Of a DNA stretch of 64,000 bases, positions 33,342 to 49,087 are shown in pieces. This DNA comes from Minutocellus sp. GHC0000111. Taxonomy: Eukaryota. The stretch spans positions 1,922,001 to 1,986,000 of the forward strand of contig OZ361260.1 in the NCBI GenBank assembly GCA_977018835.1. Reading direction: 5' to 3'. Both the position numbers and the translations under genes were made by a program. The notes beneath the pieces were generated by a model, which saw nothing but the letters and a program-made list of their open reading frames with translations, made no database searches and had not been told where the DNA came from. How positions within the stretch are numbered: the first letter of the stretch is position 1; each line of letters begins with the position of its first letter.

Positions 33342-34662
33342 GACGTTTGGGATTGTCTTGGTTACTGACGCGGAGTGGCTGGAATTTAACTTGTACCTAG
33401 GTACAGTATGTGTAGCGCAGCAGCAGGCCAGCGCGCCACGGCCTCGCCTCTAGCTAGCACGCCGCGCCGTGGTCGTGGTCGCGCCGTAGATTCGATTCGA
33501 CCATGCATGGCGATGGCGCTGCGGAATGGTACTAACTAAGGCCTTTTTATTTCTGTGAGACATCATTCAGAAGTTGAGATCGATACGAAGCCGATGACGC
33601 ATGACGAGCCAGATAGCATGCATCATACAAGAGCTCTGCTGCTCATGTGGTCTCGGTGGTGTGGCGACGGACAGACCAAATGGCATCGGAGGGGTGGGTT
33701 CCCATCCGCTGGTTCGTAGCCTGTGCACTGTTTCTACGTAGCTTGGCTGGCATGTCGTGCTTTCTGTCCTGAGTGTTCATTGTTGGTGTTCATTGCAGAG
33801 GTGGGAGAGAGGGGCTACAGCAGATGGCCCAGGTGCCCTGGCGGGGCTGCTGTTTGGTTGCTCTCTTTCTTCCTGTTGCCGTGTGTCCGTGATGAGCTAG
33901 CTGTTCCTCTTCTTTTTTTTATTATTATAAATTGGCACTTCGTGCTACAATTCTTTTCTTACTGCTTAAGCATAACTCTCTTTACTTTTTATACGTTTCT
34001 TGTTTATAGTCGATGCCTCTTCCTGCATTTACTAATGTTGAATGCTCAACAATCCTATATGGCCGAGACGTATAATGACGTCATATGGAAAGTAGTGAGA
34101 CATTCTGCTCACAGGTGCGCGTTCAAATCGTGGCCGTCGATCGTATCCTGCATCGGTGCGCCGTGTGAGCTCCATTGTAATTGTACATCGTCGTCTTCGT
34201 TGCGCTCGTGGCGGTGTCGTCGTGGTGTTTCTTGTCTCTTCTGTTTCCCTACCATGGATTCGTTTGCGGCTTCTCCCCTCGGCAAGGAATTCTTTCGTCG
34301 TTTGTGGTTGTCCTCTCACTGTCGCCAATGCTAACCCTACCCATCTCTCGTCCCCGTCATTCGTTGATATCGTTCTCTCGAATCAATTTCACTCCTTCAT
34401 CGTCGATCTTTGTCTGTCTCGTTATATATTTGTATCTTCCGCTGTCGTCGATCCTGTATCTCGGTCTCTCGAATCTCCTCGGTCTTTTGGTTGTCTCTCT
34501 TCTTCGTCGAGCCTCGTCGATCGGTGTCTTATTTTTGATATCTTCCGTCGTACTGTTTATCGCATTGACGGGATATTTTTCTTCCGTCGACCTCATAGCT
34601 CTTTTCGTCTTCGTCGTTCTGGGTCGGACATTGATTGGAGTGGTTCTGTTTTACCTTTTGTA

Positions 34663-35085
34663 ATGTCATGTGTCCCGACGTTTCGCACGGTCTTTCGGCA
34701 TCCTGAATTTGCACGTTTTGTCCAATCATTAGCTTCCGAACCTCACGGCCCCGGCGCGGCATCTGCAGGTCCTATTCATGCTTCTTTTTGCCATTTCATA
34801 GCATCTTTTCTTGCTGTGAACCAGCTTGAGCAAGTCGACGTCTTACGTGTTATCCATGCAGCTGACAGAGAGTCAATCTGTTCCGATGAAATCCCCATGC
34901 TCTATGTACGTGATGCCAACGTTGGATCCGCTGCTTACGTTTTCAGATCTAATTTTGACTCCAACCCCCATCTCCCTAGCGATGTTTTTGCCTCCTCGTC
35001 TCCCGTCTTTCGTTACCTCAGATCATGCTTTCGATCTGGTCCTCATTTCGATCCTTCTGGTCCTGATGATTACGGTCAGCTCTGA
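34663..35085 (+). CDS. Small accessory ORF (140 aa) of the Helitron-like element, unknown function
   Basis: ATG at 34663 with protein-like composition, convergent with the left-arm gene and separated from it by a palindrome-bearing AT-rich gap. Confidence 0.45.
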   Translation: MSCVPTFRTVFRHPEFARFVQSLASEPHGPGAASAGPIHASFCHFIASFLAVNQLEQVDVLRVIHAADRESICSDEIPMLYVRDANVGSAAYVFRSNFDSNPHLPSDVFASSSPVFRYLRSCFRSGPHFDPSGPDDYGQL

Positions 35086-35189
35086 AGATTTCATGTACCT
35101 CGCTCTATTTATCTTTGTGGAATATTCAACATTTGTAGATATCTCTTCTTTAATTTTGCTAGTATTATATACATATATATTAATTATTC

Positions 35190-45400: not shown

Positions 45401-48400
45401 ATGTTACGGACTACAGAAAGGATGAGGCTAAACTATGCGAAGAATGCATGATGCACACATGCAGTGGATATTGCATGAGACATCCAAAAGGAAAGAAGAA
45501 GAAGAAAAGATGCTGCCGTGCTGGGGCCGGAGAAGAAAAAACAAAGAATAGAAACGACACTCCTGGTTTCCCAATGCGGGATGCTCCAGCTATTACTCAC
45601 GACCACAGGGGATTTCTGAAACTCGAGATGCCACGGAATCATCCGCGTTTGGTCCAAGCTCCGCTAACAATTTTGAGAGGTTGGAGAGGTAATTGCGACT
45701 TTAAAATCCTGTTGTACAAATCCACGAATGGAAAACCACATCCCGAAGAAATATCAACAGTGACCGACTATGACGTCGCTTACCAATGCAAAGGAAATGA
45801 GAGAATCCAAGCTGAAATACAACTTCTCCGCGATTTTGCCTTAAAGTGAGTATGAATTAGTATTTGTATATTTTATGCTTCAATCTCAAACTAACAACGA
45901 GACTGCATGTTTTTATTATTATTTGAGAAAAGCGCTGAAACGATGACTGGGACAACAGCAGACGTCATCAGAGTGTCTCGACAAATGCTCAACCGATCAA
46001 TTGCAAGCAGAACAATTCCAAAGCAAGAGTGTATGGTCGAACTAGCGGAACTCCCGCTAGTCTTAAGTTCCGACACAACCGAAACAATAAACCTGTCAGG
46101 GAGTTACAAGATTAAATCGGATACTCACAGAGACTTAGTGTCCCAATATCGAAAAATCGCAAAGAGCAATCCGACAATGTCACTACACGATTACGTTCGT
46201 AAGGCAATCAACGAGAAAAAGAGATCAGTGAAAAACGGAAAAATGAAATACAAAAACGTAATCCCGCATTACGTTGGGGCAAACGGTCAGCCGAAATACC
46301 CACCAACAAAAGAATACGCGATGGCAATTCTCATAGTACACAAACCATGGGAAGACAGCAAGCCAAAAAGAAGGAACGGAGCACAAGATTGGATCGACGA
46401 ATTCAAAGAATTTGTCACATCAGAAGCGTGTCCAGAATTCGTGAAAATGGAATACGCACGAGTAAAAGAAAGAGCCGAGAGCAAGAGGCCATCCGAAGCG
46501 ATATCATCAGAGGAGTGCTACGACTACGAGACACAAGCAGATGTTGACGACTCAACCAAAGATCTTTTAAATATCATCACGACTCAAACACTGGCCACAG
46601 ACCCGTTTTTAAATGTCCACGACCAAAAAATCAATAAAGGCCTACATTACGACTGGTCCGAAAGAATGTCAGTAAGTCATTTATACCTGATTTATTTTCG
46701 TCGAATATTCAACAAACATAAATGACAAAAATACATCCAACAAGGGAAATTTTTTGTTTGACACAACATCCGATATTTTTTTTATTCTATCACGCATTTT
46801 TTTTAAAAAAAAGACTAGGGATCCTTCATACCTAGGAGAGTCGTGGCTCGATGAATTAACACAGGGCTACCAAGCAGACCTCTCTGCCAAGCAGAGGGTA
46901 AGGCCTTTCACGATGACCCTCGACGGTGAAGTGACAAACATCACCATAGACCACGTGAAAGATGACCAACTCGACGTGATTTTATTGGTAGTGGAAAACA
47001 TAAAGAAATGGATAGAAAGCGCAAAGGGAATCAACAAAAAGGATGCTAAAGAGTACAAGCCCCTTAGAATGACCGTAAGGGGAGCAGCAGGATCAGGTAA
47101 GAGTTTCTTCATTAAGGCCCTGGCAAATACGGTCAGAGAGATGTTTGGCGATCAAAACGCAGTTCACATATCTGCGCCGACAGGAGCAGCAGCTCACAAC
47201 GTCGGCGGCGAAACGATACACAGGAAATTCCAAGTAAATCCACACAGGCCAGAAAATGATATTGGTAAGGAGGCGAAAGCTCGATTAAAGGAAACGAAAA
47301 GAAGAACAGTGGTCGAGATAATCGACGAGAGAAGCATGCTGACATGTAAAGTCGTGGGAGCAGCAGAAAGGCACACACTGCAGAAGCAGCTCATGGAGGT
47401 TCCCACGCTAATGAAGACTGGGGTGGCATACCAGTGGTTGTATTTGTAGGCGACGACTACCAACTACCACCGCCAACAAATGTAGAGAAAGGAGCTTTCG
47501 ATCTGATGGACAGCAAGACATCATTTTCACAACAAAAGCTAGGCGACGCATCATTTGGATCACAACTCCTAATGAACATGTCAGAAAAATGCGTAGAGCT
47601 TAGGTCAGTCAGTAAAACGTCAAAATGGAACACAGTCGAAGTTCAAGGAAGTGCTACAGAATCTAAGAACAGGAGACCCCACACACGACGATGCATCCTT
47701 TTTAATGAAGTTACATCTGGCAAACCTAACTCAAGCGGAGACAGAGGAAATGGAAAAGGACAAAGTAGTAATGCACATGTTCGCCACAAAAGCGCCACGA
47801 GACGAGTACAACGTGAGGAAACTAAGTGAAAACGCATCCGACAGAAACCCCGCGGCACTAGTTAAAGCTTCATGGAAAACAAGCAGACGAGCAAACCTAC
47901 AGTCCATCGCCCAGCACTTTGACAACCCACCAGATGCAGCAACTTTAATGTGCAGAGGGTCTGTGGTCAGAATCACAGGGAAAAATTTCGAGCCAGACTT
48001 TGGACTGTTCAACAACGCCATCGGAACTGTAGAAGAAATAGTGTTCAAACCAGGGAAAGACCCGAACAATGGGGACCAACCGAGTTATGTAGCTGTGAGG
48101 TTTGAAGGATACAGCGGGCCAGCATGGGGGACGAGTCGGAACCAAAAATAGTCCCAATTCCAATGATGGTGACAAGAAGATGCAACAAAGGATGCTGCGA
48201 AGTGACATGCTGCCCACTAAGCCTCTCATACGGAGTGACAGCCCACACATTCCAGGGGCAATCAGCAGGACCAGTGGATGAAGGCCAACCAAAAAATGCA
48301 GTAGATTGTGTAGTGTTCTATCCAGGAAACAACAAATTCGAAGGAAACAACCCCGGCTTGTTGTACATGGGAACATCAAGAGCTACGACACATCAGGAAC

Positions 48401-48694
48401 AGGAAGACTAGACTCAGCACTATAATATTTTTCAGGACAAGACATGAATACATACAGAGTCATAGGACTTAAATACCAACGAGACGGAAAAACACCATGC
48501 AAGAAAGAAGTGCAACTGAGACAAAAATGGATAGAAAGACTAGACAAAAACAAACACCATTAGAGACCAAGTTGGGACAACAAAGAAAAAGAAGAACTAA
48601 TCACATGGGCAAAGACGTTCCGAATGAGCACCAACAACCTAGAAGACATTTTAAGCATGAAAGAATGGAGAGCATGCAAAGCATAAAGCGATGA
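42499..48694 (+). pseudogene. RepHel polyprotein, copy B
   Basis: Same motifs and frameshifts as copy A. Introns 43057-43190, 45281-45374, 45846-45932, 46672-46813. One substitution noticed near 48149. Confidence 0.9.
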
Positions 48695-49087
48695 CTCCCG
48701 TGTTTACTAATGCTGAATATTCAACAAAACTGTGTCAGACTATGACGTCATACAGAAATCAAATTCAGGGGAACATCCGGGGAAAAAGTAAGCCGGCACG
48801 AGCCTCCAGTTCATTCAACAATAGTGAGCTACAAAAATAAGCGTCGTATATTTAACATCTTAAAATCGTATAAGTATGCAACTATAATTGCAGCAGGGAA
48901 GACGTAATTGCTAAAATGGCCCAAGGTCCCCCCAACACAACCAACGAACGACAAAACAGAGGGCACCCGGGCCCACTACGTACCTAGGCCTAGGTACCTA
49001 GGTACATGTAGTAGGCGCCTATCACCAACCATACTACATGTAGCCTACTGAAGGTAGGCCCACACCTTGACTGGTCCAAACGCCACG

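Follow-up and report, generated by a model that had tools for sequence, protein, structure and literature searches.

The DNA considered here (the window) is a 64,000-nucleotide stretch of contig OZ361260.1 of Minutocellus sp. GHC0000111 (assembly GCA_977018835.1, forward-strand positions 1,922,001 to 1,986,000), and its central feature is a Helitron2-type (HLE2) transposon along which ten copies of a palindromic motif, or dyad, are dispersed. The element carries a RepHel gene and three accessory genes, designated A, L and B (Table 1). Its features are those of Helitron2, namely a RepHel with HUH and Y2 motifs (read as HAH and YDVAY), PIF1 and DUF6570, together with short asymmetric terminal inverted repeats. 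Pfam scans of RepHel matched Helitron_like_N (E = 8.5e-17), PIF1 (E = 3.6e-9) and DUF6570 (PF20209, E = 7.6e-19), the last of which is described as an HLE2 marker (PMC11417382). Read on the minus strand, the element begins with (T)GGGCCC and finishes with CTCTTGT, and RepHel runs opposite to these termini.

The element is multi-copy and transcribed, and is present in both DNA and RNA of public sequencing runs. The depth of DNA contigs is about 1570-2660 inside the element versus 190-275 in the flanking bins, a roughly eightfold excess that is too approximate to give a copy number. High-depth contigs begin at 33626 in three of the four runs, and the base read at 33831 in all four renders the 14-bp terminal inverted repeat perfect. 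The stop and several frameshifts of the window copy fall where the majority DNA contig differs. Helitron2 elements insert between T and T without duplicating the target. No target-site duplication was seen at the element ends; one empty allele joins the flanks as CAT/ACTACG, a T/A reading with a 2-bp ambiguity and other indels present.

Table 1. Coordinates of the element, its genes and its dyads in the window
Feature	Position	Strand	Description
Helitron2-type (HLE2) element	33627..48974	-	~15.35 kb; ends uncertain by 2 bp
Subterminal arm of terminal inverted repeat	33826..33839	.	14 bp, asymmetric
Dyad 1	34027..34060	.	gene A 5' non-coding exon, left subterminal region
Gene A (accessory)	34254..35085	+	~277 amino acids; frameshifted in window copy
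Dyad 2	35107..35140	.	between convergent genes A and L
Gene L (accessory)	35190..40351	-	five exons, ~1,400 amino acids; window copy with a stop and a frameshift
Dyad 3	36834..36867	.	last intron of gene L (36752-36905), RNA joint
Dyad 4	39712..39745	.	first intron of gene L (39621-40045), RNA joint
Dyad 5	39769..39802	.	first intron of gene L (39621-40045), 57 bp from dyad 4
Gene B (accessory)	40424..42136	+	two exons, 530 amino acids
Dyad 6	41232..41265	.	gene B intron (41191-41310), RNA joint
RepHel gene	42461..48686	+	DUF6570, Helitron_like_N (HAH, YxxxY), PIF1; frameshifted in window copy
Dyad 7	43094..43127	.	RepHel intron 1 (43057-43190), predicted
Dyad 8	45309..45342	.	RepHel intron 2 (45281-45374), predicted
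Dyad 9	46690..46723	.	RepHel intron 4 (46672-46813/46818), RNA joint
Dyad 10	48702..48735	.	behind RepHel stop; right outer box degenerate
Terminal arm of terminal inverted repeat	48960..48973	.	14 bp, asymmetric
Near-identical duplicate of 38882-49372	1..10491	+	1 mismatch, seven dyads, ~400 bp host flank

Anatomy and placement of the dyad

An earlier sequence-only reading had reported a 16-bp palindrome in ten copies with zero to two mismatches, and all ten are found in the element, at 34036, 35116, 36843, 39721, 39778, 41241, 43103, 45318, 46699 and 48711. Across the whole window, the 16-mer has 17 matches at no more than two mismatches against 0.39 expected, a number reached in none of 100 shuffles; the other seven lie inside a duplicate of the right part of the element (window 1-10491). 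The palindrome is therefore real, but it proves to be the core of a larger unit, a 34-bp bipartite dyad of the form ATTTA-N4-TGTTGAAT/ATTCAACA-N4-TAAAT. Read outward, the half-site consists of ATTCAACA, four variable bases and then the outer TAAAT box, whose successive bases T, A, A, A and T are kept in 20, 18, 14, 17 and 19 of the 20 half-sites. Conservation among the window's copies is limited to these two boxes per arm, which lie about one helical turn apart, and the linkers are free. A matrix of 36 columns (39.8 bits), applied to the ten sites by leave-one-out scoring, gave them 22-50 bits. The same scan of 38,464 host bases in the window found no dyad, the best score being -2.7, in agreement with the reported absence of the motif from host DNA. 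Measured spacings of 1080-2878 bp, plus one pair 57 bp apart, likewise reproduce the range of about 1.1-2.9 kb and the close pair given beforehand.

Of the ten dyads, five lie in introns supported by RNA and two in introns that are predicted, and the remaining three occupy non-coding DNA of other kinds. RNA joints place 36843, 39721, 39778 and 41241 in the left-arm introns and the gene B intron, as had been proposed; of the three copies assigned to RepHel introns, 46699 is placed by an RNA joint, and 43103 and 45318 fall in introns predicted by reading frame and GT-AG ends only, with no RNA joint. One RNA contig is unspliced from 45332, in the region of RepHel intron 2. The copy at 35116 does occupy the convergent gap between genes A and L, and is also within an alternative intron (34906-35308). 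Both copies described as subterminal are there: 48711 lies 25 bp past the RepHel stop, but 34036 sits downstream of an intron (33712-34009) in a transcribed 5' non-coding exon. Not every intron carries a site, since 33712-34009, 37552-37649 and 45846-45932, all with RNA joints, and the predicted intron at about 38539-38650 are without a dyad. Around dyad 1 (34028-34074), the DNA runs contain many short variant contigs at single-copy depth, which suggests that copies of the element differ at this site.

Related families carry their own dyads

A profile built from 35 Rep sequences retrieved 132 relatives from metagenomes, of which 80 were kept, and the window's motif occurs as a family in none of these 80 related loci. 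A de novo search for repeated dyads covered 68 loci of at least 3 kb, with a score threshold of 26.3, the maximum of 443 shuffles. Loci were grouped at 92% identity into families (designated L006, L008 and so on), giving 36 related families with a contig of at least 5 kb. A different dyad of its own, scoring above the shuffle maximum, was found in 27 of the 36, typically about 33-42 bp long, mostly in non-coding DNA and recurring every 1.4-2.1 kb, so the expectation that related families would bear their own motif variants is confirmed. The dyad feature is real, clade-wide and family-specific.

The motifs themselves are diverse. L006, a whole element with the gene order of the window, carries 14 sites of a 40-bp dyad, GATWATC-N8-CAA-N4-TTG-N8-GATWATC. 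In L016, the dyad is TTACGG.ATATTG-N8-CAATAT.CCGTAA (15 sites), and six sites each were found for GTAC..TGATAYAC/GTRTATCA..GTAC in L008 and for GTAC-CACAA-CGGCCAAA(n)TTTGGCCG-TTGTG-GTAC in L009. Dyad-positive families are spread across every main branch of a quick Rep tree, in which sister families bear unrelated motifs (the window, L006 and L007; L012 and L014).

While the sequences turn over, the positions are retained. Conserved coding sequence holds only 34 of 232 dyads from 28 loci, where 148.6 would be expected. In the window and the relatives closest to it, the slot before Rep exon 2 is filled in 8/8 cases, the exon 2-3 intron in 6/6, the exon 4-5 intron in 5/6, the position behind the RepHel stop in 6/6 and the gene B intron in 4/4, the exon 3-4 intron being filled in 1/6; conservation of position in diverged relatives thus holds for most slots. 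In L007, the exon 4-5 intron is empty and dyads instead occupy the exon 3-4 intron and another one not present in the window, which suggests that coverage matters more than any given intron. Gaps between site clusters (122 gaps, 23 loci) have a median of 1,669 bp, with 97% at or below 3 kb and a median coefficient of variation of 0.29. In 13 of 40 loci, representing ten families, patches of 47-182 bp with 85-99% identity, in either orientation, join distant sites, and gene conversion between sites is the process that we infer to keep the dyad copies alike. Two introns that are missing in the window, L007:4616-4745 and L012:6104-6320, each hold the dyad of their own family; sites and introns may have been gained together.

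Candidate binding proteins

The arrangement of a minus-strand L, a plus-strand B and RepHel is repeated across the clade, and a homologue of gene A, for which no Pfam match was found, lies at the corresponding place in L006. Between the window and L006, identity is 69% for Rep, 34% for B and 22-28% for L; these figures show a much faster divergence of L and B than of RepHel. The C-terminal alpha/beta domain of B, about 230 amino acids long, is homologous throughout the clade (probability 98.85) and confidently folded in the predicted structure, and structure searches returned no fold match for it. A ParB/Srx domain of the DGQHR type carries xDGxHR behind a beta-strand, with an N/Q-R motif further upstream. 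In the L open reading frames of 16 loci from more distant families, two motifs recur, QP..NHR and R.A..[DGE]G[QLMC]HR, with invariant P, N, R, G, H and R, a pattern resembling the DGQHR/ParB-Srx signature (PMC4619093). The L domain has no match in Pfam, NCBIfam or PDB. A joint weighting of the candidate dyad binders, itself a weak step, puts L first at slightly less than an even chance, followed by B as a tentative second, RepHel as an unlikely third and A as the most doubtful of the four.

A probable self-encoded protein on the dyads and rival explanations

The dyads are, with good probability, bound by a dimeric, sequence-specific protein that the element itself encodes. Two conserved boxes per arm about a helical turn apart, a free linker and no covariation of pairing point to protein binding, and the binder is likely to be self-encoded because closely related families have entirely different motifs, which would be unexpected for a conserved host factor. 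According to the mechanism that we favour, the dyads would be family-specific sites, tiled about every 1.4-2.1 kb and recognized as double-stranded DNA by a dimeric element-encoded protein, most likely the fast-evolving L. The bound protein would label the element as self over its full length, and the element so marked would probably stay unsilenced and transcribed. Binder and dyads would co-evolve within each family, with gene conversion between sites homogenizing the dyads. For such a self-encoded dimer, a role in chromatin or transcription is preferred to one in replication, and the proposal as a whole stands at about even odds, with L as the binder and anti-silencing as the purpose its weakest steps. 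An element-encoded dimeric binder was also the suggestion of the sequence-only reading; it gains from the absence of the motif in the window's host DNA, the conserved positions and the family variants, but covariation did not single out the binding protein.

A number of results weigh against this interpretation. Nine of the 36 families are without a long dyad (L044, L056, L067, L048, L069, L073, L076, L084 and L011), eight of them falling below the shuffle maximum and L011 owing its score to a tandem array. In L044 and L056, which retain B and a portion of L, no more than a short AGTYRACT core is present (nine and eight copies versus about one expected), a pattern that was chosen post hoc and has some of its copies within coding sequence. 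Among the families that pass, L013 and L022 do so with three sites only, and one host control also scored 26.3. The regular spacing is partly set by conserved exon lengths, the window copy has no patch sharing under the criterion applied to the 40 loci, and CpG is not depleted in element or host (0.91-0.96), so that no silencing pressure is visible. As regards L, exon 4 of the window copy starts QINGAKRT (PINGNKRT in L006), a degenerate form of the signature that aligned weakly to the DG.HR of distant relatives (E = 0.035), and the link of exon 5 to that domain is also weak (E = 0.019). The L profile had no significant match among 32 bacterial ParB proteins (E = 0.4) and reached E = 0.025 over 19 columns against four DGQHR-type proteins, the best of 30 shuffles giving 0.099; the ParB-like label for L is only a motif-level lead. 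As for the anticipated covariation of the motif with an accessory protein, neither B nor L could be separated from RepHel. Over 190 pairs, motif similarity fits B no better than RepHel (partial rho 0.02, p = 0.43), and its relation to RepHel given B has a partial rho of 0.16 (p = 0.06); in a set of 36 pairs, the value for the L domain (0.66) does not exceed that for Rep (0.69). In the 15 pairs with a Rep identity of 62-72%, motif similarity tracks B (rho 0.66) above Rep (0.48), in a band picked after the data had been seen and with pairs that are not independent.

The most credible of the other explanations, though not a probable one, is that RepHel or B binds the dyads for replication, as loading, origin or tethering sites on an excised circle that confer cis-preference for the own family. 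A precedent exists in the hrs of baculoviruses, interspersed imperfect palindromes of about 28-30 bp that are bound by IE1 and described as both enhancers and origins (PMC2834656). Family specificity and tiling would fit this explanation equally well, motif similarity tracks RepHel no less closely than it does B or L, and these elements show a strong gradient of strand skew along their length. One RNA contig, moreover, has gene B exon 1 (donor 40806) spliced in frame to RepHel (40806-42460), and the B promoter may drive production of RepHel as a fusion. Against a replicative function, Helitron2 ends already have terminal repeats that define them, and these are found here, circular end overlap was found in none of 16 long contigs, there is no end-to-end joint among the contig joints listed, and the motifs of the window and L006 are unrelated in spite of the similarity of their RepHel proteins. 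Far less probable is the proposal that the dyads are hairpins of RNA or single-stranded DNA that control splicing or pause rolling-circle synthesis; an RNA hairpin controlling splicing was among the options of the sequence-only reading. Most sites are intronic and the core is able to form a stem of 5-8 bp, but in all 16 loci examined the complementarity of a site's own arms is not above that of arms re-dealt among sites, linker bases are unpaired in most copies and folding energies are weak (-0.6 to -7.7 kcal/mol). The distance to the 5' splice site varies from 35 to 317 nucleotides, sites also occur outside introns, there is no Rfam match, and a hairpin would not need one shared sequence across copies; the hairpin option accordingly finds no support.

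Targets of site-specific recombination or of a nuclease, at which cutting and repair would homogenize the sites and shuffle gene modules between elements, are also an improbable identity for the dyads. Sites of the loxP and FRT type have a 13-8-13 or 13-7-13 architecture, and several families (L016, L021, L027 and L053) have dyads of 33-35 bp with such an arm-spacer-arm layout; copied patches cover whole sites, and dyad-bearing introns are unique to L007 and L012. However, loxP, FRT and dif-type targets have two arms of 11-14 bp around a spacer of 6-8 bp that is identical in partner sites, whereas the central spacers here differ among sites of one element, an argument against classical crossover. 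The clade keeps a stable gene order, and searches of Pfam, NCBIfam, PDB and predicted folds (gene A and the first four L exons not among them) gave no tyrosine or serine recombinase and no homing nuclease for A, L or B. Scarcely more attractive than the hairpin is a passive origin, in which the dyads are sites of host transcription factors or neutral patches spread by gene conversion. Patch copying is observed, and different hosts could provide different factors, but the 38 kb of host DNA contain no site, conservation is restricted to two boxes per arm with free linkers, and positions are retained while sequences turn over. In addition, a motif of about 40 bits is far longer than the typical site of a eukaryotic factor.

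Comparison with known systems

The self-encoded binder that we favour has counterparts in other mobile elements, and the present system can be likened to several of them by analogy, without being a demonstrated member of any. In Arabidopsis VANDAL transposons, VANC is reported to bind family-specific motifs in intronic, intergenic and terminal regions (PMC5735166). Shared with that system, as described there, are family-specific non-coding motifs across an autonomous transposon, their turnover between families and fast-evolving accessory proteins. VANDALs are, in contrast, Mutator-like cut-and-paste elements, not Helitrons, and they carry a non-palindromic motif of 9 bp, repeated in tandem in one orientation, where the dyads are 33-42 bp long, mostly single or paired, and evenly dispersed. 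Pfam scans gave no match of the DUF1985 type; a VANC-like role in binding and demethylation would be conceivable for an element protein by analogy.

Comparable too are the Plavaka elements of Bostrychia, with ParB-like accessory genes (PAG3) and inverted-repeat arrays (10.1101/2025.02.11.637652), and Sola1-1_Ec32 of Ectocarpus, with a ParB-like accessory gene (PMC12477816). From the available accounts, these also combine an algal transposon, a large accessory gene with a ParB-type motif and proposed self-binding, and Plavaka further resembles the present element in having inverted-repeat sites within the same element (10.1101/2025.02.11.637652). Plavaka and Sola1 are, however, DDE elements whose ParB is fused to a 2OG oxygenase or a methyltransferase, with tandem arrays by the gene; here, the carrier is a Helitron, sites tile the full length, no enzyme domain is recognized and ParB homology is not significant. 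The baculovirus hrs are similar in site architecture, with interspersed palindromes and a self-encoded binder (a dimer, according to the title of the cited work), which is predicted in the present case. Whereas hrs are clustered in a viral genome, the carrier here is an integrated, intron-containing nuclear transposon, and no relative of IE1 was found.

Within Helitrons, the nearest resemblance is to FoHeli3-5 of Fusarium, which are described as having a DUF6570 RepHel, asymmetric terminal inverted repeats and no target duplication (PMC5148889, PMC11417382), and in FoHeli4/5 the open reading frame is likewise inverted relative to the termini (PMC5148889). The 3' end CTCTTGT resembles the CTCCTGT of Helitron2. 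The Helitron2 descriptions in the accessible text of PMC5148889 and PMC11417382 mention neither a set of three conserved accessory genes nor dyads along the whole element, and a literature search within whose reach few subscription papers lay found no such system in Helitrons.

A bolder and rather unlikely version of the self-encoded binder would be a ParB-parS-like system in a eukaryote. Bacterial ParB acts at palindromic parS sites, whose consensus has TGTT...AACA ends. L would then be a nucleotide-gated clamp, loaded at family-specific palindromes about 1.7 kb apart and coating the whole element so as to license its transcription or replication, and protein and sites would change specificity in concert over only a few percent of RepHel divergence. 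The core of the window's dyad shares the TGTT...AACA ends of parS, a resemblance that fails in the relatives; L has NPR/NHR and xGxHR motifs as in ParB, its profile match to ParB is not significant, and no ParA partner was recognized.

The dyad system with its predicted binder would be a new variant of transposon self-recognition and, if this is true, a second case, independent of the first and clade-wide, among rolling-circle elements. Dozens of natural protein-site pairs would come with it, with targets of about 40 bits that are wholly different between families. How a binder and many dispersed sites jointly change specificity could then be tested directly, and the copying of patches from site to site offers a visible candidate for the mechanism. 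The families may also be a source of orthogonal DNA-binding modules and, in B, of a domain without a fold match.

Transcripts, strand skew and other features of the window

RNA contigs document splicing in L, B and RepHel and an intron upstream of gene A. The first exon of L overlaps the region upstream of B on the opposite strand. RepHel exon 1 ends (42900-43020) in a stretch that closes with RVRGG, or RLKGG in the L006 equivalent; it has no Pfam match, and we take it to be ubiquitin-like in appearance. Some stretches of the helicase exon (47608-48541) align with RNA contigs that come from other, diverged Helitrons, and related Helitrons are therefore transcribed in the same samples.

Terminal repeats of 14-18 bp also occur in L016, L021, L027, L044 and L053. 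Inside the 18-bp terminal inverted repeat of L044 lie subterminal arrays with units of 109 bp and about 90 bp (62-527 and 16296-16524). Along the window element (33627-48974), the A+T strand skew at fourfold-degenerate sites changes from about -0.6 on the left to +0.67 on the right, with a switch near 43.5-44 kb. The skew is independent of the coding strand, as genes A and B are on the plus strand and yet T-rich, and a similar whole-sequence gradient is found in L006, L021, L044, L053 and L056; it may record single-stranded exposure during replication of the element.

The copy of the element's right part at the left end of the window is a segmental or assembly duplication and not an independent insertion, because about 400 bp of host flank have been carried along. 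Elsewhere in the window, 19354-25559 contains a tandem 3.1-kb duplicate (99.9%) of a Mutator-like transposase open reading frame, a region in which the observed/expected ratio of TpA is 0.36 versus 0.60-0.75 in host DNA, and 26028-26641 is a tandem repeat with a 108-bp period within an open reading frame.

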